Below, piece after piece: positions 3,907 through 23,775 of a stretch of 64,000 nucleotides of DNA. The notes under the pieces are model-generated. The model was not told the DNA's origin. It ran no database searches and saw only the letters and a list, made by a program, of their open reading frames with translations. Every line of letters starts with the position of its first letter. Position 1 is the stretch's first letter. A program made the translations under genes and the position numbers. Source of the DNA: Candidatus Latescibacterota bacterium (GTDB lineage Bacteria; Latescibacterota; UBA2968); contig OZ242311.1 of assembly GCA_965207885.1 (NCBI GenBank), forward strand, positions 1,472,001 through 1,536,000. The letters run 5' to 3'.

Positions 3907-5271
3907 ATGACAACAGATCAAATCAAAGCGCGTCTTGAAAGCGACAAAATACAAAAAATTAAACTCGCTGGCTTCGACATCGACGGCGTTATGCGCGGCA
4001 AATACATATCGCTCGACAAATTTTTTTCTGCCATGGAAAAAGGCCTGGGCTTCTGCGATGTGACATTCGGCTGGGATATGATCGATCAACTCTACGAACA
4101 ACCCACCGTCACGGGCTGGCATACCGGATACCCGGACCTCCTCGCCAAAATTGACCTGAGCACCTATCGCGTAATACCCTGGGAGCAGAATACCGCGTTA
4201 TTTTTACTCGACTTTTACGAAAACAAAAATCAGCCACTTGCGGTATCCCCGCGCCAACTGCTCCAAACAGTCGTACGCAAAGCGAATGACATGGGATTCC
4301 AGCCATACATGTCCGCAGAATACGAATACTTCATCTTTCGGGAAACACCCCATTCCCTGGAAGACAAAGGGTTTGAGAACCTGACCCCACTCTCGCCCGG
4401 CTGGTTTGGCTACAGTATATTGCGGGCATCTGCGGCTTCAGAATTTGTCCACGCAATCATTGATGGAATGGGAGCGTATAAAGTTGAACTGGAAGGGATA
4501 CACACCGAAACGGGACCCGGCGTATATGAAACCGCGATTCGTTACGACACGGCATGCAACGCCGCGGACAAAGCCGCGCTATTCAAAACAGGCGTCAAAG
4601 AGATACTATCCAGACACGAACTCGTCGCAACCTTTATGGCGAGATGGAGTCCAGACTACCCCGGTTGCAGCGGGCACCTGCACCAGAGCTTGTGGAATTT
4701 AGAGGGAGACACAAATCTATTTGCCGATGAATCAGAAGTGTCGGGTATGTCCCAAATAATGAAACACTATATCGCGGGACAAATTGCTGCAATGCCCCAC
4801 ATGATGGCACTGATATGCCCGACCATCAACGCCTACAAGCGGACAGTCCCCGGAGCCTGGGCACCGACCAACGCCTCCTGGGGCATTGAAAATAGAACCG
4901 CATCTCTCCGCGCGATTCCAGGTACATCCCCTGAATCCACGCGCACCGAATATCGACTGGCAGGTGCAGACGCCAATCCTCACATCTCGATAGCGGCCAG
5001 CCTCGCCGCCGGACTATACGGCATAGAGCATCAACTCGACCCCGACGAGCCATTCAACGGCAATGCCTACGAAGCTCCCGAAGGGCGATTTGCACCATTG
5101 CCAAAATCACTTGAAGAAGCGACAGATCAATTAAAAAATAGCGAAATTACCCGCGCTTGCCTCGGCGACGCATTTGTGGATCACTTCGCAATCACACGCG
5201 AACACGAAATTGCGGAATATCGCCGCGCCATAACGGATTGGGAACTCAAGCGATACTTTGAGATCATCTGA
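3907..5271 (+). CDS. Glutamine synthetase family protein (likely gamma-glutamyl-amine ligase, PuuA/GlnA-like, rather than GSI)
   Basis: DIDGVMRGK, HTETGPGVYE, SGHLHQSL, WGIENRT and EYRLAGADANP motifs; ends WELKRYFE. Confidence 0.88.
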   Translation: MTTDQIKARLESDKIQKIKLAGFDIDGVMRGKYISLDKFFSAMEKGLGFCDVTFGWDMIDQLYEQPTVTGWHTGYPDLLAKIDLSTYRVIPWEQNTALFLLDFYENKNQPLAVSPRQLLQTVVRKANDMGFQPYMSAEYEYFIFRETPHSLEDKGFENLTPLSPGWFGYSILRASAASEFVHAIIDGMGAYKVELEGIHTETGPGVYETAIRYDTACNAADKAALFKTGVKEILSRHELVATFMARWSPDYPGCSGHLHQSLWNLEGDTNLFADESEVSGMSQIMKHYIAGQIAAMPHMMALICPTINAYKRTVPGAWAPTNASWGIENRTASLRAIPGTSPESTRTEYRLAGADANPHISIAASLAAGLYGIEHQLDPDEPFNGNAYEAPEGRFAPLPKSLEEATDQLKNSEITRACLGDAFVDHFAITREHEIAEYRRAITDWELKRYFEII

Positions 5272-6766
5272 ACGCCTCCACAATATAATTCCCCACCCGC
5301 AGGGCATTTGCCGCAATCGTCAAACTCGGATTGACGCCGCCAGACGTGGGAAACACGCTCCCATCCGTCACAAACAAATTGTCAATCCCTCTGAACTGGC
5401 AGTTCTCATCCAATACACTCGTCTCTTCATCATCGCCCATACGCACCGACCCCACGCCGTGGGAAAAAGTGTCGATGCGATACGTATGAAAAAAAAGCGC
5501 GCCTGACGCACGCAAAATCCCCCTAGCCTTCTCCACCAGATAATCGCGGCGGTCGCAATCACGCGCTGTGTACTGATGTATGACCTGTGCGCGGCTGATG
5601 CCATAAACATCCTTCTCATCTGCCAGCGCAACGCGATTCTCAAACTGCGGCTCATCCTCTGCAACACACAACAGATTCTGCAAAAAGCCAGCAGCTATTG
5701 CCGTCAGATTTTTAAGTCCAAAAGGCGCGTGGTGCTTCAGTGCTATAGGCGACGGCGTGTAAATATCCTGAATCACCCCAACGGCGCGACCGTCCTGCCC
5801 TCGAAAATCCCCGTAAAAATCAGAAAAACACACCTGCTTGTGAAACACCTGTTCGGGATTCGTGCGAAACGGAAACACCCCTGCCACAACAGCATTGCAA
5901 TGCCGCATCAGAAAACGCCCAATCAAATCGCCCTGCGGAAGCGAATGCAACTCTGACCGCAACAAGATAGCCGGACTTTGCAGCGCCCCTGCAGCGACAA
6001 CAGCAACAGACGCGGGCACTTCAAACGCCTTTTTTGTACGCCGATCCACACACGCCACAGCGCACACGCGCCCCCGTTTGCAAATAACACGCGCAACCTG
6101 CACGCCCGTCAAAATATCAGCCCCTGCATCTTGTGCCAACTTGAGCAAAGTCATCGTCAGATCATTTTTAGCCTCAATTTGACACGGAAACCCATCGCAG
6201 GTCAAACATCGAATACACACGGTTCGCGCTCGATCCGAAAAATTGATCGCCAATGGCATGCGAAAAGGCCGATACCCCAGCGCGCGTCCAGCATCCCAAA
6301 TGCGTTGTGCAGGACGGGACAGTTCAATAGGCGGATACAAATAGTCGCCCGTCCGCGGCGGTTCGCACGGATCAACACCCACTTCTCCATGCACTTCCAA
6401 CAAGCGCTCGACACAATCGTAATGCGGAGCCAGATCCCCATACAAAATCGGCCACGCGACCAGATCTTCTTCGCGCAGCCTCAGCGATGCCCCACCGTAA
6501 AACACGGACATCCCACCAACCACCTCATTCTCGACCACATCTGAAAAATCGCGGTCCTCATATTGCCTCACCCGAAGCGGCGATGGACCTTGATAGCGTT
6601 TCTCAACCAGCACAGAACGGGGATCCCAATCCTTTGCATCGCGCCTTGCCCAATCGCCCCGTTCCAACAGCAAAACCTTCATACCCGCCGCAGCCAACAC
6701 ATAAGCGCAGGCACTACCTCCAAATCCCGTACCGATAATAACGGCGTCGTAATCGTTAAAATTCAT
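5264..6766 (-). CDS. GMC family FAD oxidoreductase
   Basis: IIGTGFGG Rossmann motif; C-terminal HGVGSVRMG and DGSVFPTSGGVNPSLTIAANA; CIRCLTCDGFPC. Confidence 0.92.
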   Translation of the reverse strand: MNFNDYDAVIIGTGFGGSACAYVLAAAGMKVLLLERGDWARRDAKDWDPRSVLVEKRYQGPSPLRVRQYEDRDFSDVVENEVVGGMSVFYGGASLRLREEDLVAWPILYGDLAPHYDCVERLLEVHGEVGVDPCEPPRTGDYLYPPIELSRPAQRIWDAGRALGYRPFRMPLAINFSDRARTVCIRCLTCDGFPCQIEAKNDLTMTLLKLAQDAGADILTGVQVARVICKRGRVCAVACVDRRTKKAFEVPASVAVVAAGALQSPAILLRSELHSLPQGDLIGRFLMRHCNAVVAGVFPFRTNPEQVFHKQVCFSDFYGDFRGQDGRAVGVIQDIYTPSPIALKHHAPFGLKNLTAIAAGFLQNLLCVAEDEPQFENRVALADEKDVYGISRAQVIHQYTARDCDRRDYLVEKARGILRASGALFFHTYRIDTFSHGVGSVRMGDDEETSVLDENCQFRGIDNLFVTDGSVFPTSGGVNPSLTIAANALRVGNYIVEAFR

Positions 6767-7566
6767 TAAACCTCAAACACATACAGAACAATTAACCCAA
6801 CAATAATAACCAGTGCCCCGTAGTGGAATTTTTCTCTGGAATCAATACACCGCTGAATCCGCGGCAAATCGGGGCGAAATTTGCCCGACATCGTGCGCTG
6901 AATATAAGTCTTGTAATACTCCACAACAAAACGCTCCAACCCACCATTCATATACACCAGAAATCCCAACGATATGGGATACATGGGATCATTGAGAAAA
7001 TAGAACAGCGGCGAACAAACCGCCAGCACCAGGCCCGACCGCTGAAACTTCAAAATTTTAAACCCCTCAAACGGCGCGTCTTTATACGCCCCGCCAAGCG
7101 ACACCAGCAGACCCGTGACATAAGCAGTCAGGAGAAAGACCCAGAAACTCGTCACAGGCGCGGGAATCAACAACACGGCAAAAACGCCCAGCACCAGTAC
7201 CGTTCCCACAGCATAACGCAACAAATCACTCGCGACATACCGACCGAAAAACGTAATGCGCGAAGGCACAAAATACTTATCCTGATCTTCCGTGCGGAAA
7301 AACCCCTTGTAAAGCTCGGCCAAAAACCGTTCCAACCCCATAATCAGAAAAAAAATCTGAACCCATCCCAACGCGGAAAAACTCGCCTTAAAAATCGGGA
7401 CAAAATACAACACCGCAAAAATCACAACATGAAAATAAATACTCCGCGGAAAAGTTCTGGGCTTAAAATCCTCATAGGGCGAGTCCTTGAACGCCCCCCA
7501 CAAAGACGTATAAAGTCCAGATACAATACTCACACCCAGGCCAATATAGAAATTCATAGCGATCAT
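6766..7566 (-). CDS. Uncharacterised polytopic membrane protein with a two-fold internal repeat
   Basis: About 7 hydrophobic segments; repeats GAFKDSPYEDFK/GAYKDAPFEGFK and GLERFLAELYK/GLERFVVEYYK; stop overlaps the GMC start. Confidence 0.8.
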   Translation of the reverse strand: MIAMNFYIGLGVSIVSGLYTSLWGAFKDSPYEDFKPRTFPRSIYFHVVIFAVLYFVPIFKASFSALGWVQIFFLIMGLERFLAELYKGFFRTEDQDKYFVPSRITFFGRYVASDLLRYAVGTVLVLGVFAVLLIPAPVTSFWVFLLTAYVTGLLVSLGGAYKDAPFEGFKILKFQRSGLVLAVCSPLFYFLNDPMYPISLGFLVYMNGGLERFVVEYYKTYIQRTMSGKFRPDLPRIQRCIDSREKFHYGALVIIVGLIVLYVFEV

Positions 7567-7585
7567 TCCGATTCGAGTGACTTCT

Positions 7586-10003
7586 TTACTTTACCTTTTT
7601 CTCGCCGCGCCCCCCTTCGAGCACTTCCAAAATAGCGGGCAGCACCAGCACGGCAGCCACAAAACAGGTCAACAAACCAATCAACGCCAGACGCCCAATC
7701 GAATTGAGACCGGGATGCGTCGCCATCATCAATCCAAAAAAGCCCACCATCGTCGTCAGCATAGAAATGAACATCGCCCCACCTGTGCTCCTGATCACCA
7801 CCGGCATAGACCCGGGGCCCTCCTGCCTATATCGGTGATAGAGATGCACTCCATTGTCAATCCCCATGCCAATGATAGTGGGCAGCGCGACCATATTGTA
7901 GAAATTGAGCTTCAAATCCTGTAAATACAGCGAACCACACATCCACACAGTGCCACAGGCAAGGGGAAAAATCACCAGCAAAGCAGAGCGCAAACTGCGA
8001 AAATCAGTCAGTAAAATGAGAAACACGACAATCACCGTCAGCGAGATCGCACGCGGACTATCGCGCAGCATCAGGCGCAACATATCGGCAAAAATAATAT
8101 TGGAACTCGACGAATAAAACACCTTGCCCGACGCAGTCTGAATCTCGTGTGAATCTTCTGCAAATGCAATGGCATTTTTTCCATCGCGCAACTGCACACT
8201 CGGCAAAATTTGTGCGAAATACGCCTGACTGCCATCAATAGTCTCAAATTTTCTCAATAAATTTTCGGGCAAATCCTCAACAGAAAGCCTTTTGACATCC
8301 AACAACTCGCGCAGAGAATCGAGTTTTGCCTTTTGTGTGCCCTTGATCAACTTCGCGCCCTCGCCATCGGCCAGCACGCGAATTTCTCCAATAAGTTCCA
8401 ACTTCTCGTCCTGACCGCGCAACTCTGTCCAGAGCGTTTTGACCTTGTCAATCGTCGGCGTTGGATCATCTTCGGCTATCTTCTTTTCCAATGCATCCAC
8501 AATCTCATCGAGTTCCGTTTTGCTATCCGCCAGCACAATGCCATAAGACTGCGATTCACTGCCGTATTTCGGAATCGTCGTCATCTTCTGTTTCACCTTC
8601 ACAGATGCGGGCAAGTTGGAACGCAAATTGGTAAAATCGTATTCAAAATCGATATCCCGCAAATGAATGCCCAGATATATCGTGAGGAGCAACGCGCCGG
8701 CAATCACCAACTTCGGATATGGGAAATGCCCCCGGCTGTCGCCCCAATTGTGTCCCCACACATGCCGCATGCGAATCCACATGAACCTTTGATCCGCCAG
8801 CACCAGCACAGCGGGCAATACAGTCGTCATAGAGACCAGCGACATGACAATGCCCGTGCCCACAATAAAACCAAACTCGGAAAAGCCCCTGAAATCTGTC
8901 AACGTCAGAGAAAAGAACGCAATAGATGTGGTAATCGCCGCCGTCAAAATAGCCTGTCCAGTCTGACTCAACATCGTCTCTATGGACTTCTGCACATCCG
9001 TCTTGTCCATGCGAACTTCGAGATATCGCGCAAACATGTGAATACCAAAATCGATCCCCAGCCCAAACAAAATCACAAATAGAAAAGCCGTCATGGTATT
9101 CAAATTGCCAATAACCCAATAAGTAATGGCAAACGCCCAGATCAGGCCCATCGCCAGCGGAATAGCCACAAAAAAAGCCGCCAATGGCTGGCGGAAATAA
9201 AACGTCAAAAGCGCGACAATACCCATGACACCAAATATCAACGTCGAGCGGACATCGCTTAAAATGGTATCGTATTCGTCAATTTTGTTCTTAAACGGTC
9301 CTCCGTATTCAATCAACATCTGCGGGTGATACGCTCGCGGATTCACCTTCTTGACCGCCTGCTGGATCACCCGCTGCATATCCTTGGCAAAACCGATATT
9401 ACTCACCGTACCTGCTGCCATTGCCTCCAATGCCAGGATGGTGCGGTCGGAATTGGTATAATACGTCTCGTCCCCATTATCTGCCGTGCGATACTTAGAC
9501 TCAATATCCGAAAAATCGAGCACGGCTTCTTCATCATCAAGCGAAATATACAACGGCGACAGCTTCAACTTTTCCTGGATGATATAATCATCTATGCGCG
9601 TTAGAACCTCATCCAAATCGTCCGTTTCCATAAACAACAGCGCGTTTTTGCGATAAAATTCCGCATCTCGCTTGTAATCGACAAAATTGATGTACGTCTC
9701 GTATTTCTCGTCCTGTAATTCGTGTGCCAGATCCTCGGCAAAACGCCTGTTTGCCTCAAAATCGGGACTCTGTACCAAAACCACCAAACTGCCCACACCG
9801 CCCACGCGCTGTTTGATCTCATTGAGCGTCTTCACACTCTGATAATTTTCCGGGATCAGGGCAACGAGATCCGTCTCGAGCTTCCGTCCAAGCCTGTACA
9901 CAAAAATACTGCAAAAAGCCGTCAACAAAATCGACACCACAAGAATACCTCTGTAGTGCCGATAAGTCCACCCCGCCAAAAAACGAAGCCCCACTTCAAC
10001 CAA
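7586..10003 (-). CDS. MMPL/RND family lipid transporter (HpnN-like)
   Basis: 805 aa with two-fold TM architecture and paired TM4/TM10 motifs GLGIDFGIH and GMGIDNGVH. Confidence 0.9.
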   Translation of the reverse strand: MVEVGLRFLAGWTYRHYRGILVVSILLTAFCSIFVYRLGRKLETDLVALIPENYQSVKTLNEIKQRVGGVGSLVVLVQSPDFEANRRFAEDLAHELQDEKYETYINFVDYKRDAEFYRKNALLFMETDDLDEVLTRIDDYIIQEKLKLSPLYISLDDEEAVLDFSDIESKYRTADNGDETYYTNSDRTILALEAMAAGTVSNIGFAKDMQRVIQQAVKKVNPRAYHPQMLIEYGGPFKNKIDEYDTILSDVRSTLIFGVMGIVALLTFYFRQPLAAFFVAIPLAMGLIWAFAITYWVIGNLNTMTAFLFVILFGLGIDFGIHMFARYLEVRMDKTDVQKSIETMLSQTGQAILTAAITTSIAFFSLTLTDFRGFSEFGFIVGTGIVMSLVSMTTVLPAVLVLADQRFMWIRMRHVWGHNWGDSRGHFPYPKLVIAGALLLTIYLGIHLRDIDFEYDFTNLRSNLPASVKVKQKMTTIPKYGSESQSYGIVLADSKTELDEIVDALEKKIAEDDPTPTIDKVKTLWTELRGQDEKLELIGEIRVLADGEGAKLIKGTQKAKLDSLRELLDVKRLSVEDLPENLLRKFETIDGSQAYFAQILPSVQLRDGKNAIAFAEDSHEIQTASGKVFYSSSSNIIFADMLRLMLRDSPRAISLTVIVVFLILLTDFRSLRSALLVIFPLACGTVWMCGSLYLQDLKLNFYNMVALPTIIGMGIDNGVHLYHRYRQEGPGSMPVVIRSTGGAMFISMLTTMVGFFGLMMATHPGLNSIGRLALIGLLTCFVAAVLVLPAILEVLEGGRGEKKVK

Positions 10004-10017
10004 TGAGTGCCACCTTT

Positions 10018-10614
10018 CTAATCCGACGTATCTTCACTCAGTTTTTCTTTTAACTTATCCATCAAGCCTTCAAAAGAAGACCTGCGAATCTCCCGGCGAA
10101 ACTGCGACCGGTTGCTGCGCGCAACACTCAACTCATCGATCACCATATCGAAAATCAACCACTTGTCATCAACGAGATGCAATTTATAGTCAATCGTACT
10201 CGACTCGCGCCTGTAATACACCACCGTCTTGACAACAGCCTGTGTGCTATCAACCTCAACACCCGTATAATCGATCTTTTCCGCTTTCGTATATAACGCG
10301 GGATCGGCGTAATTTTTCTCGATCAACTGCCTGTTCACAACCACAAAATCAGCCCGCTCTTCTTCTGTTCGCGCTGTCCAATCTCGGCCGAGGGACTCCC
10401 GGCTAAATGTTTCAAAATCGAACAACTCACCGACAATAGCTTTAAGCGCAGCGCGCTCTTCAGCTGTATCGCCCCCAGTTTCTGAACGCACAATATCCTG
10501 AATCGCCCGATCGCGGCTCTTTACCATATCGAGCAACGCATCGCCCTGATCAGACGCGCCTGCCACACCCATCAAAACGAGCATCAAAAACGCAGGCATG
10601 AGCAATAAAATCAT
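10018..10614 (-). CDS. MlaC/Ttg2D (HpnM-like) periplasmic lipid-binding protein
   Basis: FDFETFSRESLGRDW, WLIFDMVIDELSVARSNRSQF; signal peptide MILLLMPAFLMLVLMGVAGA. Start moved to ATG 10614 because the track's GTG 10701 lies inside the IS; ATG 10668 is an alternative. Confidence 0.82.
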   Translation of the reverse strand: MILLLMPAFLMLVLMGVAGASDQGDALLDMVKSRDRAIQDIVRSETGGDTAEERAALKAIVGELFDFETFSRESLGRDWTARTEEERADFVVVNRQLIEKNYADPALYTKAEKIDYTGVEVDSTQAVVKTVVYYRRESSTIDYKLHLVDDKWLIFDMVIDELSVARSNRSQFRREIRRSSFEGLMDKLKEKLSEDTSD

Positions 10615-10691
10615 AACATATGGCCTATTAATATCAATAACTTGTTTGCAGACAGTATTTTCATCCATTTTAATATTTTTTTCTCCCAAAG

Positions 10692-11889
10692 CATAGTACA
10701 CGACAAAAAATAAAAGACCTGTGAAAAAAGCTAAAAAGAGTTAGGTTTGAATGTCCCAAGACAAACCTTTCTCATCTTAACAAGGCACAGGTCTATGTCT
10801 CCTGAAACTATTGAACTTCAAACGATTATGCAAGGATATTTTCACTGGCATAAAGCCCGAATAACGTTTACCGCTGCGTTCATATTGTCGCTGATAAAAT
10901 TGCGTAGCGTCAATTTTATGAAACTGGCAAACGCACTCAATGGAACCGTCAAGCAGAAATCTAATTATCGTCGTATCCAACGCTTCTTTGCCCACTTTGC
11001 CTTACCCTATGCGTGTGTGAGACAATTGATCTTGCACTTATTACCTATAAAGTCGGATTTTATAGTCTCAATAGATCGCACCAATTGGAAGTTGGGAAAA
11101 TTCAATATCAACATCCTAACCGCAGGCATTATCTATGAAGGGGTCGCCTTTCCTATCTGTTGGCACTTGTTAAAAAAACGGGGCAATTCCAATAGTGATG
11201 AGCGTATCCATTTGATGCAAGAAATGCTCAACTGCATCTGCAAATCGCATATCCGCGTTGTCGTCGCAGACAGAGAATTTATTGGAAGAGAATGGTTTAG
11301 GTGGTTAGACACACAAAATATACCCTTTGTTATTCGCATCAAGGAAAACGCTCTTGTCTCATCAGGCGGTAGAGAGATCCCCATAAGAAAACGGTTTGAA
11401 AATCTTAATATCCATCAGCAGGTCAACTTGTGCAAACGCCACCGCGTTTATGACCTGCCTGTATATCTGTCTGCACTAAGATTGAAGGACCAATACCTCA
11501 TTCTTGCCAGCAACCAAAAAGGTCAAGCCGCATTGGATACCTATAAAAAACGATGGGGCATTGAAGTCCTTTTTGCCAATCTTAAAAGTCGAGGATTTAA
11601 TCTGGAAGAGACCCATCTTATACATCAAGACCGCATTGAGAAACTCATCGCGCTTTTGGCCATTGCCTGCATCTGGGCGCATATCATCGGCGAATGGATA
11701 GCAAAAACAAATCCTTTGACGATCAAAAATCACGGGCGGATGGAGAAAAGTCTCTTCCGATATGGGTTGGACTATTTGCAGTATGTCCTGCTCAATATAA
11801 ACCAACAAACCCAACAGTTCCTCATATGCATTCGTTTACTGAGTAATCCGCCACTGTTTAAAACAATTTAAGTTTTGTCGTGTACCATG
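10692..11889 (+). mobile_element. Complete IS4-family insertion sequence, 1198 bp
   Basis: IRL CATAGTACACGACAAAA (10692-10708) and IRR TTTTGTCGTGTACCATG (11873-11889), 16/17 match. The 9-bp target duplication CTCCCAAAG is at 10683-10691 and 11890-11898. Confidence 0.95.
10795..11871 (+). CDS. IS4 family DDE transposase
   Basis: IDRTNWK, ADREFIG and YKKRWGIEVLF (YREK-type) motifs; uninterrupted frame; likely start ATG 10795. Confidence 0.93.
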   Translation: MSPETIELQTIMQGYFHWHKARITFTAAFILSLIKLRSVNFMKLANALNGTVKQKSNYRRIQRFFAHFALPYACVRQLILHLLPIKSDFIVSIDRTNWKLGKFNINILTAGIIYEGVAFPICWHLLKKRGNSNSDERIHLMQEMLNCICKSHIRVVVADREFIGREWFRWLDTQNIPFVIRIKENALVSSGGREIPIRKRFENLNIHQQVNLCKRHRVYDLPVYLSALRLKDQYLILASNQKGQAALDTYKKRWGIEVLFANLKSRGFNLEETHLIHQDRIEKLIALLAIACIWAHIIGEWIAKTNPLTIKNHGRMEKSLFRYGLDYLQYVLLNINQQTQQFLICIRLLSNPPLFKTI

Positions 11890-12014
11890 CTCCCAAAGTC
11901 AAGACAACGACAACCTGTCTCAAAAAAAGAGAACAAGAGTATTAACAAAAATAAGAACGCCCTATTTTGCAACAAAATTCTCTAATGATCTTGCAAAAAA
12001 TACCGCGTACAAAC

Positions 12015-12054
12015 AAACTTCTGTTGAAGTTATACACCCCCCCAACAGAAGTTT
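12015..12054 (-). terminator. Stem-loop downstream of the IPCT/DIPPS-like gene
   Basis: Perfect 12-bp inverted repeat AAACTTCTGTTG / CAACAGAAGTTT with a 16-nt loop, 28 nt past the stop. Confidence 0.5.
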
Positions 12055-12082
12055 ATCTCAATTCAAACAGGATTTGCATCAA

Positions 12083-13537: not shown

Positions 13538-13571
13538 AACTTCTACAACCTTTCTCAATATCCCAAGCAAT

Positions 13572-14888: not shown

Positions 14889-15037
14889 GTGTGAAAAAAA
14901 ACCACACCTGTTGCAATTGAACAACACAACCCCCTGGACTCCGGCGAAAAACTTCAGAAACATAAAAATCTATATCTATATTAAACAAATAGTTAAAAAA
15001 AGACCATGCAAACAGGCACAAAATATCTCTCTATATA

Positions 15038-15053
15038 AGCGAAATCCGTGCCA
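15038..15053 (-). promoter_or_regulatory. Putative sigma54 (-24/-12) promoter of the tolC operon
   Basis: Minus strand reads TGGCACGGATTTCGCT, with exact GG-N10-GC spacing. Confidence 0.6.
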
Positions 15054-15066
15054 CCGTTAAATATAC

Positions 15067-15092
15067 AAAAAAACCGGACAAAAGTCCGGGTT
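15067..15092 (-). terminator. Rho-independent terminator
   Basis: Minus strand CCGGAC-TTTT-GTCCGG followed by a T-run. Confidence 0.65.
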
Positions 15093-15130
15093 AGCTATAC
15101 TAACGTTTTCATCCGCAAGAAGTTCCCCTC
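15083..15130. repeat. 48-bp direct repeat, left copy (island boundary)
   Basis: AGTCCGGGTTAGCTATACTAACGTTTTCATCCGCAAGAAGTTCCCCTC; 46/48 identical to 21135-21182. Confidence 0.95.
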
Positions 15131-15202
15131 CTGTGCGGCGGTGTGGAAGATCTCCGGAAACCTCAGGTCGTAGCAGATCCCCACACCGAAGGTCCAGCCT
15201 TG
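15125..15202 (-). pseudogene. Fragment of a carbon-nitrogen hydrolase (nitrilase family) gene
   Basis: Hand translation gives QGWTFGVGICYDLRFPEIFHTAAQEG, containing the catalytic-Cys motif ICYDLRFPE; it has no start or natural end. Confidence 0.75.
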
Positions 15203-15275
15203 CGGAATCAATCAGTTATAAAGGTTTCGAACTGTTGACAGAGTTGGTCGTAATGAGATGGCGTATCTGTCTTGG

Positions 15276-16142
15276 TCAGGGCCCTATATCTTCCACGATT
15301 TGCAGTTCGGCAGTATCCACTTCGCTGGCTCCGAAATATCCCAATGCATATCGCTGGGGATTGGTCAGATTCTCTATGTTGCCCCTAATTAACGCCGCAG
15401 GCGTAGGGAAGAGGGGATCTTGCCCTGTCTGCTCGAAGAGCTGGAAGTAATATTCAAAGGCCTCTTTCGATAAGGAGAGCTGTCTCACGAGAACCAACTG
15501 ATCCGATTTTACCGTGGCTTCTTGGTTGGGTTCGAAACCGATGACTTTCTCTCCGTCAAAAAACTCATCCGATCCGACAAAGTTGAGCGAATTACCAGGA
15601 TCGGGCTCTGCCTGCAGTACGCCGTCCGCGAATTGCTCCCACAAATAGTAATCTTCGCGACCCGGGACGTCTTGATAGTCGATCTTTACTCGAATGCCTC
15701 CGTCCTCGAACGAATTGGCCTTCTCAAATTGCTGGTAGATCGAGTCGATGGGCGAGACGGGAAGTAGTATTTCGACTGCTCGATAGGATTCGCCGTTAAG
15801 GTCAATTTCAAGGGTGTAGGTCCTGCCAACTTCTGGCCGCATGTCCCTGTTTTCGTACATGCCGGCTTGGCGCGAGGACTCAGCGAAGAGGTAGGTGGTG
15901 CCCTCATCGTCGCGTACGATCACCTCTGCTCCGCTGACCACAGGTGTGGATTCATTGCTGAAATAGGGGGCTGTGGTAGACAATCTGATTGACTGCGCGA
16001 CTTCGCGATCATCTTGGTAGCGCTCGATGCGACCTTCAACGACGAGTCGTTCTGGTCCTTCTTCTACATCGATATTGACGACTCTCTCACATCCCATGAG
16101 CACGGGAACTGACAGCCAGACGGCGATTAGTATGTTTTTCAT
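15276..16142 (-). CDS. DUF4249-family lipoprotein
   Basis: Lipobox-like MKNILIAVWLSVPVLMGC; RLVVEG, LSKEAFEYY and GNIEN...ALGYFGAS motifs; directly downstream of a TBDR. Confidence 0.85.
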   Translation of the reverse strand: MKNILIAVWLSVPVLMGCERVVNIDVEEGPERLVVEGRIERYQDDREVAQSIRLSTTAPYFSNESTPVVSGAEVIVRDDEGTTYLFAESSRQAGMYENRDMRPEVGRTYTLEIDLNGESYRAVEILLPVSPIDSIYQQFEKANSFEDGGIRVKIDYQDVPGREDYYLWEQFADGVLQAEPDPGNSLNFVGSDEFFDGEKVIGFEPNQEATVKSDQLVLVRQLSLSKEAFEYYFQLFEQTGQDPLFPTPAALIRGNIENLTNPQRYALGYFGASEVDTAELQIVEDIGP

Positions 16143-16144
16143 AT

Positions 16145-18508
16145 TTAGAATTTCCGGTTGTAGGTTATGCTGGGCAGGATTCCGAAAAGGGATATTTGTA
16201 CGGCTTCGGTGACAAGCTTGTCCTTCTCGTTTTGCCGCACGCTGAGTGAGGCGGAGTTGCGTCGGTTGTACACGTTGTAGATGGTAAAGGCCCAACTGTT
16301 TTCATTGGCTGTCGTGTAGGTCAGTCCCAGATCCAGGCGGTGATAGGCTGGCAGGCGAGCCCCATGGCGAGTCTCGTACTGAGGAACAATAAAATTGGCG
16401 AATTCGTAGCGGCTGGCCGGGAGGGTGGAGGGCGTACCTGTGGCAAGGACGAGATTCGTCGATAGCGACCAGCGGGGTTTGAGCGCGTATACCGTTGTCA
16501 GGGTCAGGTCGTGTGTCTTGTCGTTGCTGGCTGGATAGTACCTCCCGTTGTTGATGCCCGGATCGCCGTTACCTAGTCCGGGGACTTGTCGCTCGGTGCG
16601 CGACCACGTGTACCCCAACCAACCGGTTAATTGTCCGGTGCGCTTGCGCACCATCAGCTCTACGCCGTAGGAACGGCCTCCGCCCTTTAGTAGCTCGGTT
16701 TCCAGGTTGTTGTTGACGGTCAGGTCGGATCCGTCAACGTAGTCGATCTGGTTGTTCATCTTCTTATAATAGGCTTCGATCGAGGCTTCGTACGTGTTGT
16801 CCTGGAGATTTCGGAAGTAGCCGATGGCGATCTGGTCCGCTGTTTGCGGCTCAACAAAAGGTCCGCTGGGCCTCCAGATGTCCAATGGCTGGGATGCGGT
16901 AGTATTGGAGATGAGGTGGATATACTGCCGGATGCGATTGTAGCTCACCTTGATCGAGCTGGACTCTGTCAAGGACCATCGTGCCGACGCTCGGGGCTCC
17001 AGACCAGCAAAGCTCTGTATGTTTTCCCTCTCCCCAAACGAGATGACGCTATCGACCACGCCCGCTTCGTACCGGCCCAGGGTCTCGTTGTAGACGATGG
17101 GTTGATCATCGCGATAGGCGGGAAGGTCCTGGGCACCCTGACGTCTGAACGCCGAGAGACGCAACCCATATTGGAGGGAGATAAAGTCGGTGAGTTGATG
17201 GTCCAGGCTGAGGTACGCGCCTGGCTCTATGGCGTTCTGTTGATCCAGTTCCGTTGGCACAACAGAGGACGCTTTCCCAATGGGTTTGATGGTGCCGGGG
17301 GTAAAGCTGTAATGGATGGTACTCGCGCCGAAGTTGACCGCATTTCCTTCGCTCAGTGAGTAGGAGAAATCCGCTTTGAGCTTGTAGTTGGTTATGTGTG
17401 ATAACCAATTGTGTTCCGCGCCTGCTGTGAATGTATCGCTATCGTAGCTGTACCTGCTGAATACTCCCGTGAAATTCGCGAAGAGTCGCCGGCTGAAGAG
17501 GTTCCATCGGATGGTGGCTGTGGTATTCCCCCACGCGTTGCCGAAGATGTCCGCTACTTTGAACGCGTCTCTGCCACGATAGCCCGAGACAAAGAGCCGG
17601 TTGTTGTCGTTGATATTGTAGTTGCCTTTGAAGTTGACGTCGTAGAAGTGGGCGGTGCTCTTGTCACTGCTAAACGCGTTGTAGAAGATGTCGCCGTATG
17701 AACGGCGAGCGGCGATCACGTAGGATCCGCGACCGTTGGCGACCGGTCCTTCAAGGAGCAGCCGCCCCGAGAGGATGCCTATTCCCACTTTGCCGCGGAA
17801 CTCTTTGGCATTGCCCTCCTTTTGTCGCACATCCAGCACTGAAGACAAGCGTCCCCCATATTGCGCTGGAATACCGCCTTTGTAGATCTTGATATCTTTG
17901 GTGATGTCAGCATTGAAAACTGAGAAGAAGCCGAAGAGATGAGCGGCGTTATAGACGATGGCTTCGTCGAGTAGGACGAGATTCTGATCTGCTGCGCCAC
18001 CGCGCACGTTGAAGCCCGCAGCCCCTTCGCGTACGGTCGTCACTCCCGGCAACAGTTGTATTGCTTGTACCACGTCTGCTTCGCCCAATACAGCTGGCGT
18101 GCGCTGTACTGTCTGTATGTCCAACTCGGCTGCGCTCATTTCGATCGATTCGACATTCTTATCGGCTTGGTGTGCGCTCACAGCGATCTGCCCCAGTTCG
18201 ATGACGGCTACCCCCAATTCGATGTTGAGCACTTGATCCTGATGCGGGTCTGTCGTGCGCACGATTGATTCGTAGCCGATGAGGCTAAAGCTGATTTCAT
18301 GAGCTCCTGCTGGCAGTCGTAGCGAGTAATGCCCATAGGCATTCGTGATTGTACCCACCTGAAGGGTCGTTACAACGACATTGACGCCCGGTAGGGCTTC
18401 GCCGTCGGCCGCATCTTTGATTTGGCCGCTAACGGTGAGTGTCTCCTGAGCTGGGCTGTTTGTGATTGTCGTGAGCAGCAGACAAGCTGTTAGGAAGGAC
18501 TTGTGCAT
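16145..18508 (-). CDS. TonB-dependent receptor with N-terminal carboxypeptidase-regulatory-like domain
   Basis: GEALPGVNV, LPGV...FNVRGGAADQNLVLLDE, KGGIPAQYGGRLSSV, RLPAYHRLD and a terminal aromatic residue (YNRKF). Confidence 0.93.
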   Translation of the reverse strand: MHKSFLTACLLLTTITNSPAQETLTVSGQIKDAADGEALPGVNVVVTTLQVGTITNAYGHYSLRLPAGAHEISFSLIGYESIVRTTDPHQDQVLNIELGVAVIELGQIAVSAHQADKNVESIEMSAAELDIQTVQRTPAVLGEADVVQAIQLLPGVTTVREGAAGFNVRGGAADQNLVLLDEAIVYNAAHLFGFFSVFNADITKDIKIYKGGIPAQYGGRLSSVLDVRQKEGNAKEFRGKVGIGILSGRLLLEGPVANGRGSYVIAARRSYGDIFYNAFSSDKSTAHFYDVNFKGNYNINDNNRLFVSGYRGRDAFKVADIFGNAWGNTTATIRWNLFSRRLFANFTGVFSRYSYDSDTFTAGAEHNWLSHITNYKLKADFSYSLSEGNAVNFGASTIHYSFTPGTIKPIGKASSVVPTELDQQNAIEPGAYLSLDHQLTDFISLQYGLRLSAFRRQGAQDLPAYRDDQPIVYNETLGRYEAGVVDSVISFGERENIQSFAGLEPRASARWSLTESSSIKVSYNRIRQYIHLISNTTASQPLDIWRPSGPFVEPQTADQIAIGYFRNLQDNTYEASIEAYYKKMNNQIDYVDGSDLTVNNNLETELLKGGGRSYGVELMVRKRTGQLTGWLGYTWSRTERQVPGLGNGDPGINNGRYYPASNDKTHDLTLTTVYALKPRWSLSTNLVLATGTPSTLPASRYEFANFIVPQYETRHGARLPAYHRLDLGLTYTTANENSWAFTIYNVYNRRNSASLSVRQNEKDKLVTEAVQISLFGILPSITYNRKF

Positions 18509-18662
18509 AGGTTCTTTCCTTTCCTGGTTAATAGTACATGTATATGCGTCAAAGCCTTCTCGGTGACCATCACAAGGATTGTGTATTGCACAGTGCAGTG
18601 GTCATCTGACGAGCGGCACAACTAATACTACGGTCCGGCTGTTAACTGAGGATTGCTGCTGG

Positions 18663-18677
18663 GTAACGAATTGTAAC
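18663..18677. promoter_or_regulatory. GTAAC-N5-GTAAC tandem box, putative OmpR/CpxR-type operator of the TBDR
   Basis: GTAACgaattGTAAC, 155 nt upstream of the TBDR start; the same box occurs upstream of the RR. Confidence 0.6.
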
Positions 18678-18829
18678 AAGATGTGAACGGTGTGAGCGTT
18701 GTGGACGCACGAGTATTTCGTGCTTAGGCAGTCTTTGTCTTGCCTCAAGCGAGGATGGTAGAGGGATGCTGTTATGAGAAGCTATTTGGGGGCGCGTAGA
18801 TGCGCCCTCATTGGGGGAATCTACCTATT

Positions 18830-19010
18830 ATATAGAGGACTCGGTTCGAGAGGAATCGGCGGACATGGTGGCCCGGCACGCCCCGGAGATTTCGCCCTGT
18901 TACGAAGTCGATGACCGCCGCTGTGGTCCCTGGATCCCACTCGATATCGACGTATCTCCGTTCGACAACTCGGGCACCGACAAAGAGGGGGTGTGGTCAC
19001 GGATTCAGGG
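18830..19010 (+). pseudogene. IS1380-family transposase remnant fused to a probable IS terminus
   Basis: Peptide ...WIPLDIDVSPFDNSGTDKEGV (IS1380-type catalytic region) is followed immediately by TCACGGATTCAGG(G), which resembles IS1380 ends. Confidence 0.65.
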
Positions 19011-20300
19011 AAATGTGAGCAGGACGCATGTTCCTTTGTTCGGTTGGCTCGTAATATCGATCTGTCCTCCGTGTGCCTCCATGATTTTCTTGCATACGCT
19101 CATGCCCAAGCCATAGCCGCCAGTTTGTTTGGAGCGAGATTTATCCACGCGATAGAAGGGCTCGAAGATGCGGGGGAGATCGTCTTTTGGGATGCCTGAT
19201 CCGTAGTCTTGCACCTTGACAAAAATCTTCCCTTGCTCCCGGGCACAGGTGACTTCGATGGGATCTTTCGCGTTGGAGTGTCTGGTGGCATTCGAGAGGA
19301 GATTGTTGAGGACCGTTGTTACTCTTGTTGGGTCGACGCTCACTATGAGATCTTCAGGCGAGCATTGGAGGACGACGCCAGGTTTTTGGTTTTGGTAATT
19401 CTTGCACGTATCCATTAGGAGATCAAGGATATTGATCGGTTCGAGTTGGAGTCCTCCATAGGAGCTGTTTAGGCGCTCAGTTTCGAGAATTTCTGTCACC
19501 ATTGCTTCCATATGCTTGATGTTTCTGTGGAGGGTTTGCTTGGTCTTGTCGTGCTTGAGAAACTCCAGAGCTACTAGCATGCGCGTTAGCGGTGAGCGTA
19601 ACTCGTGACTCACGTCGAGTAGCAACTGGTCGCGGGTCTGGAGTGACTCACGGATTTGCTGGGTCATATGGTTGAACGAGAGTGCGAGCTGGCCAAGCTC
19701 GTCGACGCTATTGGTCTTGATCTCAAAGTCGAGGTTGCCTTCCCCAATTGCCCTTACGCCCTCATGTAGTGCTTTTATGGGTTTGAGTTGGTTGCGAAGT
19801 ATGAGGTAGATGGCGAAGAAGGAGAATATGACGAGTCCAAGTGAGATGAGATCATAGAGTTCATTTTGATATAGATCTTTGAGGAGATTGAGCTGATAGT
19901 GGCCATGGTCTGATTGCAGATCTACGAATATGCCTCCGCTTTCCTCGCTGATCATGATCCTGACTCGATCATCCTCCTCATAGGGGATCAGGGCCTCTCT
20001 CTTCTTCACCTGCATGTCGGGGTCACTTTGCCAAATGACGCCGTTGCTTTCATACCTGATGTCTACTTGTAGGCTGTCTGCTGTTTGTTGTAGTCGATGC
20101 GGATCGGGTTGTGGTCCAAGGTCGGCTACAATGCCTTGTGCGTGCCTCACCATGAGGCCTGATAATAGGGCTGGTAGAATACTGCTTCGTAGTTCACGGT
20201 CTTCAAGCCAGAGGAGGAGGGCTGTCATGATTGCGATGGTGAGGAAGAACAGTAGGGAGATCCTTAGAAAGAGCGACCGCTTGATATTGAAGAGTCTCAT
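19005..20300 (-). CDS. HAMP-domain sensor histidine kinase (CpxA-like)
   Basis: Two TM segments, HAMP (DELGQLALSFNHM), H-box VSHELRSPLTR, N-box NLLSNA, and G-boxes DYGSGI and GGYGLGM. Confidence 0.93.
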   Translation of the reverse strand: MRLFNIKRSLFLRISLLFFLTIAIMTALLLWLEDRELRSSILPALLSGLMVRHAQGIVADLGPQPDPHRLQQTADSLQVDIRYESNGVIWQSDPDMQVKKREALIPYEEDDRVRIMISEESGGIFVDLQSDHGHYQLNLLKDLYQNELYDLISLGLVIFSFFAIYLILRNQLKPIKALHEGVRAIGEGNLDFEIKTNSVDELGQLALSFNHMTQQIRESLQTRDQLLLDVSHELRSPLTRMLVALEFLKHDKTKQTLHRNIKHMEAMVTEILETERLNSSYGGLQLEPINILDLLMDTCKNYQNQKPGVVLQCSPEDLIVSVDPTRVTTVLNNLLSNATRHSNAKDPIEVTCAREQGKIFVKVQDYGSGIPKDDLPRIFEPFYRVDKSRSKQTGGYGLGMSVCKKIMEAHGGQIDITSQPNKGTCVLLTFP

Positions 20301-20992
20301 ACTGCCTCTGTGGCGCCGAGAAACATGTATCCTGCGCCGCGAATCGTTCGTATGTAGCGAGGGTTTTTCGGGTCGTCTTTTAGCTTGTTGCGTATTCTGG
20401 ATATGAGGACATCAACTGAGCGGTCGAAGGCCTCCCAGTCTATTCCTCGAATATTCTGCATGATATAGCCTCGACTGAGGACTCTTCCCTGGCTTTGGAC
20501 GAGCAGAGCCAGCATTTCGAATTCTGTTGTTGTGAGATTCAAGGCGACGCCATCGAGTGTGGCGGTATATTTCTCCAAGCTAATTTTGAGACTGCCGACG
20601 TGGAGAAGGTCTTTCTTGGCCGGCTTGTGCCCTCGTCTGAGGACTGCTTGTATTCTCGCGACCAGCTCTCTTGCTTCAAATGGCTTGGGTAGGTAGTCGT
20701 CTGCTCCGAGTTCGAGTCCGACGACACGATCTGTGATGTCCCCACGGGCCGTGAGCATAATAATGGGCAGCGTATTTGTTTCTCGGATGGTCTTGCACAC
20801 CTTGAATCCATCCAATTCTGGTAACATGACATCAAGAATGACCAGGTCGAAGTCGCTTGTTCCAAGAAGCTCGAGCCCCTTAGACGGGCTGTGCACAGCG
20901 GTTATCTGGTAGCCGAAGTCTCCCAAGTAGGTCTCTAAGAGATCGGTGAGTTCTTGGTCATCATCGATGATTAGTATTGAATCCATTACCAT
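20297..20992 (-). CDS. OmpR/CpxR-family response regulator
   Basis: IIDDD, LDVMLPELDG, GADDYLPKPF, DRSVDVLISRIRNKL and IRTIRGAGY; overlaps the HK start by 4 nt. Confidence 0.95.
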   Translation of the reverse strand: MVMDSILIIDDDQELTDLLETYLGDFGYQITAVHSPSKGLELLGTSDFDLVILDVMLPELDGFKVCKTIRETNTLPIIMLTARGDITDRVVGLELGADDYLPKPFEARELVARIQAVLRRGHKPAKKDLLHVGSLKISLEKYTATLDGVALNLTTTEFEMLALLVQSQGRVLSRGYIMQNIRGIDWEAFDRSVDVLISRIRNKLKDDPKNPRYIRTIRGAGYMFLGATEAV

Positions 20993-21061
20993 GAGTCCTA
21001 TGAGTCCTTGCTTCTGTAAGGGAAAGAAAACCTTGTAGTGTAAATGGATTTTTTCTGCTTT

Positions 21062-21076
21062 GTAACAGATTGTAAC
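21062..21076. promoter_or_regulatory. GTAAC-N5-GTAAC tandem box, putative autoregulatory site of the RR-HK operon
   Basis: GTAACagattGTAAC, 70 nt upstream of the RR start. Confidence 0.6.
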
Positions 21077-21134
21077 CGTGGAGGGGGGTGTTACGGTAGG
21101 GTGGGATTCGGTCCAGGTACATCATTTACACATC

Positions 21135-21182
21135 AGTCCGGATTAGCTATACTAACGTTTTCATCCGCGAGAAGTTCCCCTC
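21135..21182. repeat. 48-bp direct repeat, right copy (island boundary)
   Basis: AGTCCGGATTAGCTATACTAACGTTTTCATCCGCGAGAAGTTCCCCTC; 7 nt from the flippase stop. Confidence 0.95.
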
Positions 21183-21189
21183 TACATAT

Positions 21190-22137
21190 TCACCGCCGCA
21201 CCGCCATCAAAACAAATCCAAAAAACACCCAGAAAATTTTCCTGATACGCCGGATCAATGCAACGCCCAATCCCAATTCTGGCGTCAACCCCAACAATTG
21301 AAAAAGAAACACATGCCCACTCTCAAAAACACCGACACCAGATGGAATAAAGAAAAACGCCGTGTTTATAATCAACGACAAAGACGTGAGCAAAAAAGCG
21401 GTCAAAAAAGATTGTGGCTGTCCCAACAGGCTGAGAATCGCATACACTTCAAAAGTTCCCAAAACCCAACTCAGCATGTGCAGTGCCATACACAGCCAGA
21501 ACCCCAGGCGATTCTGCCGGTAAAATGCCGCAATCGTCCGATCAACTTCTTCAAACTTTTCACGCTTCGACTCCAAAAAAGAGAGACGCAACTTCTTCAA
21601 AACATCCAGCAACCATACAGAAGCCCGTTGGCGCTGAGACATATACGCCGCCACAATTCCAACCGTACCCAACACCAGGGCAACCCCCAATCCAATCTGC
21701 ACCTCTACTGAAAGCGGAAACATGCCCACGGCCAACCCCGTGCCAACCAGCGCGAAGACCAGGCCACTCACCAGTTCAACCGTCTTATTGATCACCAGAG
21801 AGGGTACACCCTGCGTCACAGAAACCCGGTCGCGCAACATATACGCTTTGGCCACCTCACCACCCACATGGGAAGCCGGTGTGACATTGCCAATAGCTTC
21901 TCCCGATAACTTTGTGCAAAAAAGTGACCAAAAATGCGGACGCTCGCCATTAAAACACATCGCCCATGCCCACGTATTGCTCACATGCCAGCCCAATGCA
22001 ATGAGCAAAACAGGTACATAGCCCCACCCCATCTGCCGCACTTGCGTCCAGGCGGCGATAATCCCAACCTCGTAAATCAACACCGCCAGCAGCGTTAACC
22101 CAATGCCCCACAACATCACCCTGCGCGCAGTTTTCAT
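21190..22137 (-). CDS. Lysylphosphatidylglycerol-synthase TM / UPF0104 flippase-like membrane protein
   Basis: GNVTPASHVGGEVAKAYML and FFIPSGVGVFE...ALIRR motifs; about 8 TM segments. Confidence 0.88.
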   Translation of the reverse strand: MKTARRVMLWGIGLTLLAVLIYEVGIIAAWTQVRQMGWGYVPVLLIALGWHVSNTWAWAMCFNGERPHFWSLFCTKLSGEAIGNVTPASHVGGEVAKAYMLRDRVSVTQGVPSLVINKTVELVSGLVFALVGTGLAVGMFPLSVEVQIGLGVALVLGTVGIVAAYMSQRQRASVWLLDVLKKLRLSFLESKREKFEEVDRTIAAFYRQNRLGFWLCMALHMLSWVLGTFEVYAILSLLGQPQSFLTAFLLTSLSLIINTAFFFIPSGVGVFESGHVFLFQLLGLTPELGLGVALIRRIRKIFWVFFGFVLMAVRR

Positions 22138-23718: not shown

Positions 23719-23775
23719 AACGCAACCTCCATCCTTGACAACAGCAACACAACACAATATAATCACTTCTCACCT

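Follow-up and report, generated by a model that had tools for sequence, protein, structure and literature searches.

The stretch of DNA analysed here (the window, at its full length of 64,000 nucleotides) covers positions 1,472,001 to 1,536,000 of contig OZ242311.1, in the complete 6.23-Mb chromosome of an uncultured, sponge-associated Candidatus Latescibacterota bacterium. It carries a cluster of seven minus-strand genes that may encode the synthesis and export of an envelope lipid with a phospho-alcohol head group; the window's close relatives all bear the Latescibacterota label. Gene calls rest on Pfam and NCBIfam scans of 16 open reading frames (ORFs) of the window. Read in the direction of the genes, the cluster consists of an HpnL-like UPF0104/flippase-like membrane protein of the LPG_synthase_TM type (315 aa, 21190-22137; PF03706, 103.7 bits), a TolC-like outer-membrane factor (463 aa as called, 13572-14963; PF02321 OEP in two stretches, 102 bits, cut-off 22), a fused NTP-transferase/CDP-alcohol phosphotransferase resembling IPCT/DIPPS (12083-13681; Pfam NTP_transf_3, NTP_transferase and CDP-OH_P_transf), a MlaC-like periplasmic lipid-binding protein (10018-10701; PF05494, 108.3 bits, cut-off 26), an HpnN-like MMPL/RND inner-membrane lipid transporter (805 aa, 7586-10003; PF03176 in two stretches, 142 bits), an internally duplicated eight-helix membrane protein of 266 aa that matches no Pfam or NCBIfam family and is here called Mem266 (6766-7566), and a GMC-family FAD oxidoreductase without a signal peptide (5264-6766; PF00732, 60.9 bits, and PF05199, 80.1 bits).

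Two insertions interrupt this series and are not part of the system, namely an IS4-family insertion sequence (10692-11889, plus strand) and a repeat-bounded island of 6 kb (15131-21134, minus strand). Once they are taken out, seven intact genes are left, and both insertions as well as the domains of the genes lie where the first-pass annotation of the window had placed them. Its gene list was incomplete in that it lacked two usual companions of the set, a GFO/IDH/MocA oxidoreductase and a DUF3047 protein. The DUF3047 gene of the window (45530-46495, minus strand; PF11249, 126 bits) lies 23 kb from the nearest cluster gene and 39 kb from Mem266, and the distance between DUF3047 and Mem266 is steady at 25-39 kb in the window's genus.

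The grouping is conserved in close relatives. In a set of 28 loci encoding a relative of the fused enzyme, 20 have all seven genes on one strand (19 of these in the window's order), and the largest gap between cluster genes stays below 330 nt in 16 of the 20 complete close loci. In six loci, between three and six of the cluster genes follow the window's order; five are truncated by the end of a contig or locus, and the sixth (L024) gave no TolC or HpnL match in the 1.6 kb upstream of its enzyme gene. No HpnL match was found in L027, and L029, labelled Longimicrobiales, holds six of the genes in a different order. Seven-gene synteny of this kind is far beyond chance, and the first-pass annotation, which had made its proposal of a lipid synthesis and export system depend on synteny in related genomes, is upheld on this point.

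Farther afield, the seven genes prove to be two fused modules, one for synthesis and export (A) and a redox one (B). Module A comprises the CDP-alcohol enzyme, a flippase (HpnL-like or Wzx-like), the TolC-like protein, DUF3047, MlaC and MMPL, and module B comprises Mem266, GMC and usually a GFO/IDH/MocA oxidoreductase. The two are joined in the window's lineage and in metagenome-assembled genomes (MAGs) labelled Longimicrobiales, Bdellovibrionales and Deltaproteobacteria. The two-module view is taken because A and B sit at separate loci in G168 (Latescibacterota) and G170 (a Gemmatimonas-labelled MAG). Gemmatimonas species are available in culture, and both modules occur in a MAG labelled G. 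phototrophica. Five genomes with a module B lacking nearby transport or synthase genes were searched, with the enzyme neighbourhood inspected in four; G168 and G170 have a second, tightly packed operon apart from module B, in the order NTP-transferase, CDP-alcohol transferase, HpnL-like, TolC-like, DUF3047, MlaC, MMPL, and in G171 and G172 the enzyme homologue stands alone in the stretch inspected.

The joined clusters are also reshuffled. The Longimicrobiales locus (L029) has the order GMC, GFO, Mem266, DUF3047, TolC-like, MlaC, MMPL, CDP-alcohol enzyme and, at the end of the cluster in place of the UPF0104 gene, a Wzx-type flippase, while L039 and L050 read DUF3047 / CDP-alcohol enzyme, MMPL, Mem266, GMC, GFO. 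The CDP-alcohol enzyme, MMPL, Mem266 and GMC genes thus adjoin, in orders other than the window's, in three MAGs outside the phylum, all three with DUF3047 and one (L029) with MlaC-like and TolC-like genes; DUF3047 copies lie inside the operon in L029, L115 and L118. The recurrence of the same families in different orders, with a Wzx-type protein in the place of UPF0104, is the strongest evidence that these proteins work together. The linkage that the first-pass annotation had read into the gene set is supported in that the families are neighbours outside the phylum too; its view of the set as one unit is not, as the set splits into modules A and B.

Module B can be followed more widely. Among 78 further loci collected by means of a Mem266 alignment, the GMC gene is found directly behind Mem266 in 48 of the 49 loci whose Mem266 is at least 57% identical, and the other 28 loci (29-37% identity) gave no GMC match. 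A GFO/IDH/MocA oxidoreductase comes after GMC in 32 of 49 GMC loci (L029 included); 12 of the 17 without it are the window's close relatives, where glnA follows instead. A Mem266 profile matches 125 of 168 genomes of the phylum, with 30/30 in family f1, 20/22 in f2, 74/76 in f4 and 0/40 in other families. As a separate observation, a xylose-isomerase-like (AP_endonuc_2) TIM barrel and an ATP sulfurylase are encoded divergently upstream of module B in L048, L065, L085 and L099 (Latescibacterota, Gemmatimonas and Handelsmanbacteria loci), and in L065 a Stf0-type sulfotransferase lies close by, a hint of sulfated or keto-sugar chemistry.

Three of the transport components, MMPL, MlaC and UPF0104, have nearest relatives that handle lipids. 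The MMPL protein scores 328.5 bits with the HpnN model TIGR03480 and 203.8 bits with the sterol transporter BstA, has HpnN (5khn, E 2e-32) as its nearest solved chain and is not of the AcrB type (ACR_tran 22 bits, below cut-off). The MlaC-like gene is the sole MlaC-family gene in the genome and lies directly upstream of MMPL in every locus carrying it. The UPF0104 protein contains the flippase-like domain TIGR00374 (72.4 bits, above the cut-off of 43.2), and the TolC-like protein reaches 82.8 bits with TIGR01844 (cut-off 225), its signal peptide probably beginning at the internal Met of MFRLCVSFF... in the called frame. A membrane-fusion-protein (HlyD/MFP) domain, whose absence the first-pass annotation had pointed out, is found neither among the 16 window ORFs nor among those scanned in the distant loci, which include L029, L039, L050 and L057. 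MlaA gave no match in the genome, and the single MlaE homologue lies about 340 kb from the cluster. The DUF3047 protein is modelled with an N-terminal membrane helix and a beta-jelly-roll domain (AlphaFold2 (AF2) pLDDT 61, moderate), and its Foldseek matches are jelly rolls of the GH12/GH11/CBM type at TM-scores of about 0.3.

These components recall two known systems. The hopanoid genes HpnN/HpnM (with HpnS and HpnL) of Burkholderia and other Pseudomonadota likewise combine an MMPL-type RND protein, a MlaC-family protein and a UPF0104 protein with no membrane-fusion protein; the transport passages of a preprint (PMC12324291) propose a route from the inner membrane by way of a shuttle to the outer membrane with an HpnS/MlaA-type receptor, and describe the functions of HpnM and HpnL themselves as untested. 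Unlike the hopanoid set, the present one has no MlaA/HpnS-like receptor, has TolC-like and DUF3047 genes in the operon instead, and includes a CDP-alcohol enzyme in its conserved core. The Mla system (MlaFEDB-MlaC-MlaA) also has a MlaC-family periplasmic carrier, but here there is no MlaA, and the sole MlaC-family gene stands beside MMPL and not with mlaFED (MlaD was not searched for). Since MlaA is absent, a receptor of the HpnS/MlaA type is unavailable, and among the conserved proteins only the TolC-like one and DUF3047 are left as candidates for the receiving end. This step is the most speculative.

The fused enzyme aligns with the IPCT/DIPPS of Archaeoglobus fulgidus (4mnd) at E 1e-54 over residues 48-419, that is, over both domains, and its start is probably near 13540, since residue 48 is where the alignment begins both with its relatives and with the solved structure. 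The A. fulgidus enzyme (4mnd, 2xme) has the same fusion of a cytidylyltransferase with a six-helix CDP-alcohol phosphotransferase, and the juxtamembrane linker is conserved. In the alignment to 4mnd the motif D361xxD364G365xxA368K369x8G378x3D382x3D386 is intact, with Lys where the consensus DX2DGX2AR...GX3DX3D, as given in the relevant passage of PMC9246714, has Arg. Unlike the A. fulgidus gene, that of the window lies inside a lipid-transport operon and not beside ino1, and its acceptor is presumed to be lipidic and not inositol-1-phosphate. The 1255 homologues of the enzyme at E 1e-40 or better carry automatic names only in public sources.

Homology makes an inositol head group plausible, and ino1 is present in the genome. 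For Bacteroides vulgatus and Prevotella, an NTP transferase and a CDP-alcohol phosphatidyltransferase have been proposed to make an inositol lipid via CDP-inositol (Heaver et al. 2022, PMC9246714), a pathway that itself lacks experimental confirmation; that cluster, too, has an LPG-synthase-like (UPF0104-type) gene nearby. Unlike in the window, the Bacteroides and Prevotella genes are separate, stand beside a MIPS gene and are accompanied by a HAD hydrolase, and the pertinent passages of PMC9246714 describe no MMPL, MlaC or TolC partners. For sponge Latescibacterota, the pertinent part of PMC12993501 mentions only myo-inositol synthesis. The genome encodes five further CDP-alcohol transferases, one of them PIP-synthase-like. 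Another, a small CDP-alcohol phosphotransferase, forms a second pair with an HpnL-like UPF0104 protein (G000:C1:4764040-4765612; L123 1456-3139); this pair lies downstream of a sigma-54 activator and repeats the transferase-flippase pairing of the cluster, with an HpnL-like copy 43% identical to the window's. Elsewhere in the chromosome, a PgsA-like CDP-alcohol transferase adjoins a TIGR04283 'arsenosugar biosynthesis glycosyltransferase' (above cut-off; L120 765-2004, G000:C1 near 3.82 Mb).

No other protein of the set is as well conserved as Mem266, which keeps 71-79% identity where the rest drop to 55-65% and founds a membrane-protein family without database description. The family is small (a search of 1.84 billion representatives gives 261 clusters at 50% identity), and the ESM Atlas yields hypothetical-protein clusters only. 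The duplication already noted in the first-pass annotation is evident in two halves that are 34% identical over 96 aa (E 2e-12), with pseudo-symmetric KDxPxExF and ExYK motifs and invariant D28, E32, K87, D163, E167 and K219. The AF2 model is very confident (pLDDT 96.5), and fold searches found no usable solved match (best Foldseek E 0.13; best VIA-align Z 4.8, to SID1-type and adenylyl-cyclase membrane domains, not usable). The invariant D/E/K residues face the cytoplasm, as the loops on the motif-bearing side hold 13 Lys or Arg residues and those on the other side none. In other proteins, Mem266 homologues are fused to VTT/DedA or DUF3047 domains.

The stop codon of Mem266 overlaps the start of the GMC gene by 1 nt. 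In 13 GMC orthologues, C184, C187, C190 and C195 (CxxCxxCxxxxC) are invariant, as are H436 and N479. The nearest solved chains belong to membrane-bound FAD sugar dehydrogenases, namely the FAD glucose dehydrogenase (FAD-GDH) of Burkholderia (6a2u, E 2e-24) and the fructose dehydrogenase of Gluconobacter (7w2j, E 2e-14). Such enzymes bind an Fe-S cluster via a Cys-rich stretch. Unlike these enzymes, the GMC protein of the window has no cytochrome, small Tat subunit or signal peptide, and its conserved partner is the cytoplasm-facing Mem266. It would be a membrane-docked dehydrogenase acting on the head group.

Distant Mem266 homologues also occur in another setting, between a CDP-alcohol phosphatidyltransferase and an HMPTM-zinc-ribbon radical-SAM protein, in L032 (9284-12630) and L035 (9229-12499), loci of a Bacillota-labelled and a Synergistia MAG. 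These homologues are flanked by a MacB/FtsX gene and by a TolC-like gene, the latter lying close upstream, and the radical-SAM protein is of what we take to be the tetraether-synthase type. Two Vulcanimicrobiota loci, L037 and L047, show the same pattern of ORFs (a comparison of the ORF pattern alone). Loci of this type may represent a different lipid-modification cluster that uses a Mem266-type protein.

Taken together, the cluster seems best explained as a system of two modules serving an envelope lipid whose head group is a phospho-alcohol, a reading with roughly an even chance of being right. In this scheme, the fused enzyme, working at the cytoplasmic face, would use CTP to activate an alcohol phosphate (homology suggests L-myo-inositol-1-phosphate from the genome's Ino1), and its CDP-alcohol phosphotransferase domain would move the phospho-alcohol onto a membrane-bound acceptor, presumably a lipid. 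The HpnL-like UPF0104 protein would flip the product, the HpnN-like MMPL protein would extract it from the inner membrane and the MlaC-like protein would ferry it across the periplasm. The TolC-like outer-membrane protein, proposed as receiver because the genome has no MlaA, would form the receiving end, probably with the aid of DUF3047, the membrane-anchored jelly-roll protein. In module B, Mem266 and GMC, which are translationally coupled, may oxidise the head group at the cytoplasmic membrane face; most other lineages also have a GFO/IDH/MocA oxidoreductase in this module. From the lipid-export interpretation of the first-pass annotation, this scheme keeps what is borne out by synteny, by the lack of a squalene-hopene cyclase (SHC; gene shc) in the genome and by linkage outside the phylum, and drops the single-unit view and the value placed on ino1. 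A wider version of the proposal can be put forward only tentatively and is rather doubtful: that Latescibacterota, Gemmatimonadota and Bdellovibrionota-like bacteria have an envelope-lipid pathway in which a DIPPS-type phospho-cyclitol lipid is oxidised by the new-fold Mem266 and an Fe-S flavoprotein and exported from MMPL via the MlaC-like protein to TolC-like/DUF3047, with no fusion protein. If true, this would be the first lipid shuttle to deliver its cargo to a TolC-family protein.

Several results weigh against the two-module lipid proposal. The identity of the lipid and the substrates is something we infer, as are the direction of transport, the contacts between the proteins and the role of the TolC-like protein, and the family models are matched from a distance: the MMPL protein stays below the HpnN cut-offs (TIGR03480, 328.5 vs 751.85 bits; NF052374, 216 vs 1100), the MlaC-like protein below that for HpnM (TIGR03481, 61.6 vs 160.1), the UPF0104 protein below that for HpnL (TIGR03476, 147.9 vs 195.65) and the fused enzyme below that for IPCT/DIPPS (NF041135, 258.8 vs 580, a model built for Thermococcales). 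The sole characterised relative of the enzyme, DIPPS, makes a soluble compound. The ino1 gene is 3.6 Mb away among unrelated neighbours, with no lipid genes beside it, and is found in 159 of 168 genomes of the phylum, with or without the cluster, and the separate PIP-synthase-like gene could account for the use of inositol. To our knowledge, there is no precedent for a TolC-family protein receiving cargo from a MlaC-family protein. As for gene content, modules A and B are unlinked in two of the genomes examined, MMPL has neither a MlaC nor a TolC-like neighbour in L039 and L050, L045 has a close Mem266 orthologue and no GMC match within 10 kb, and DUF3047 is more widespread than Mem266 (145 vs 125 of 168 phylum genomes). 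Finally, the cluster may be poorly expressed in this organism, since GFO is missing beside GMC and mobile DNA cuts the operon twice. Two candidate co-occurrence markers were rejected: ino1, which the first-pass annotation had suggested, is uninformative because it is nearly universal in the phylum, and DUF3047 is more widespread than Mem266 itself.

Other explanations of the locus start from the same proteins. The cluster might serve a surface glycoconjugate or a polyol-phosphate-decorated polymer, with the CDP-alcohol enzyme adding phospho-polyol to a carrier-linked glycan, the GMC and GFO enzymes (and, in other lineages, a TIM-barrel enzyme) remodelling sugars, and a Wzx/UPF0104 flippase exporting the product together with envelope proteins. 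Such a role fits the Wzx-type Polysacc_synt genes next to the cluster (L029, L118), its neighbours in L050 (a GT1 glycosyltransferase and a GDP-mannose-dehydratase-like epimerase) and, in four lineages, the TIM barrel and ATP sulfurylase encoded upstream of module B (with Stf0 in L065). It also fits the sugar dehydrogenases or oxidases among the nearest solved relatives of GMC and the likeness of DUF3047 to glycoside-hydrolase/CBM jelly rolls. The last point is weakened by the moderate DUF3047 model and its low TM-scores; moreover, MMPL and MlaC have lipid carriers as nearest relatives, and neither the window's cluster nor the 28 close loci contain a glycosyltransferase or polymerase, so that a glycoconjugate is judged unlikely, if well short of negligible. 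Efflux of solvents or drugs combined with outer-membrane maintenance, by an RND, TolC and Ttg2D/MlaC arrangement with unrelated enzymes nearby, would explain the joint presence of an RND-superfamily transporter, a TolC-family protein and a member of the MlaC/Ttg2 family, and a MlaE homologue does exist elsewhere in the genome. The transporter, however, is of the MMPL/HpnN and not the AcrB type, the scanned ORFs of the window and the distant loci hold no membrane-fusion-protein domain, the genes are closely packed in most complete close loci and the biosynthetic genes travel with the transporter across phyla; efflux is accordingly very improbable.

Two further possibilities concern the cargo and the enzyme. 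Ordinary hopanoid transport, which the first-pass annotation had tied to the presence of shc, is not what the cluster encodes, because the genome has no hopene cyclase: PF13243 has no match in the complete chromosome, and the best TIGR01507 score is 16.4 bits against 431. It does encode HpnC (329.6 bits, cut-off 250), HpnD (318, cut-off 279) and HpnE (410, cut-off 283), all above their equivalog cut-offs, at G000:C1:935254-938426 (L125 7255-10426), outside the window, and an isoprenoid cargo is therefore conceivable, in that a transporter set of the hopanoid type could have been re-used for squalene or a squalene-derived lipid. HpnL, HpnM and HpnN are indeed the best NCBIfam matches for three of the seven genes, and across 61 sampled genomes of the phylum HpnE is confined to f1 (15/16 and the window's own genome) and f2 (3/3), both almost entirely Mem266-positive families. 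The same sample has HpnE in none of five f4 genomes, although 74 of 76 f4 genomes have Mem266, and G040 has HpnE and no Mem266; for these reasons the isoprenoid cargo is a rival and not the leading reading. In addition, G168, a Latescibacterota genome whose Mem266 locus holds Mem266, GMC and GFO only, has module A, hpnCDE lies 0.54 Mb from the cluster, the three Hpn models are matched below their cut-offs and the CDP-alcohol enzyme would be left unexplained, all of which makes a squalene cargo improbable. About equally improbable is that the fused enzyme is a true IPCT/DIPPS making the soluble osmolyte di-myo-inositol phosphate, its adjacency to an exporter being without functional meaning. 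The close match and shared fused architecture with the solved A. fulgidus enzyme, the presence of ino1 and the name 'CDP-L-myo-inositol myo-inositolphosphotransferase' given by JGI to several homologues agree with this, and papers on deep-sea Thaumarchaeota discuss IPCT/DIPPS genes, we assume as osmolyte genes. An osmolyte does not account for an enzyme gene that adjoins MMPL in varied orders in Latescibacterota and in Longimicrobiales-, Bdellovibrionales- and Deltaproteobacteria-labelled MAGs and stands beside HpnL-like and TolC-like genes in L115 and L118; the enzyme also scores 259 bits against a cut-off of 580, and its gene is not beside ino1.

The envelope-lipid proposal touches on a wider question, as how non-lipopolysaccharide lipids reach the outer membrane in diderm bacteria is an open problem, for which the HpnN/HpnM route itself is only a proposal. 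No description of the gene set was found in the literature searched (supplements not covered, including Table S3 of PMC12324291 on families near shc and hpnN), and the cluster is credible as an undescribed variant of lipid synthesis and export systems. Each step can be tested directly, because a single gene set covers head-group synthase, flippase, RND extractor, periplasmic carrier and outer-membrane protein. The cluster would also point to a new lipid in phyla with few or no cultured members that abound in sponges, oceans and soils, and it flags Mem266 and DUF3047, families without an assigned function, as components of a lipid pathway.

The insertions that interrupt the cluster are both absent from most relatives. 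The IS4 element lies between the genes of the CDP-alcohol enzyme and the MlaC-like protein, and an inverted repeat of 25 nt stands on each side of its transposase (NF033591, 250 bits), at 10690-10714 and 11867-11891. The element is missing from the four relatives aligned by blastn, whose homology breaks at window positions 10691-10705 and 11890-11894, and none of 28 related loci has a transposase match (IS4 in 0/28, the island in 1/28). The spacer between the two genes is a hot spot for insertion, since L002, L012, L013 and L014 hold 1.3-6.4 kb of extra DNA there. The island is bounded by 53-nt direct repeats (15078-15130 on the left and 21130-21182 on the right, the latter 92% identical to the left copy) and encodes a DUF4249 protein, a TonB-dependent receptor, a histidine kinase and a response regulator, with a GC skew opposite to that of its flanks. 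It is absent from L003, L008 and L016, in which about 48 nt of the repeat stand once, and is present in L005 (2346-8001) at 98% identity between flanks that are 93-96% identical. No recombinase is visible in the island, and these features suggest recent exchange through the 53-nt repeat.

Directly upstream of the cluster, and co-oriented with it, lies a gene for a protein with TPR and parvulin PPIase domains (22210-23766, minus strand; Pfam TPR families and Rotamase). Its position is kept in Latescibacterota loci down to 36-63% identity, and it is possibly part of the operon, although its membership is uncertain. Antisense to it runs a 625-aa ORF without a family (22459-24336, plus strand), probably a shadow ORF and not a gene. 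Promoter-like sites in the sequence are at chance level (12 vs 11.9 expected), and terminator-like sites (28 vs 14.5 expected) yielded no usable operon boundary.

Metatranscriptome contigs from four sponge RNA runs of one study cover, at 95% identity or more, parts of the GMC, Mem266, MMPL, MlaC, IS4, CDP-alcohol enzyme, TolC-like and TPR-PPIase genes. As these contigs tell neither strand nor level and may stem from carried-over DNA, they hint only weakly at transcription in close relatives; none falls on the island, which is uninformative. One contig shows an IS-less joint, from 10682 to 11890, and IS4 is multi-copy in the community, since its ends join several different flanks in contigs from the RNA libraries. 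In the chromosomal locus that also holds hpnCDE, a 785-aa leucine-rich-repeat protein (L125 2214-4571; G000:C1:930213-932570), with weak internalin-like matches far below cut-offs, could be a repeat protein of the eukaryote-like kind in a sponge symbiont.

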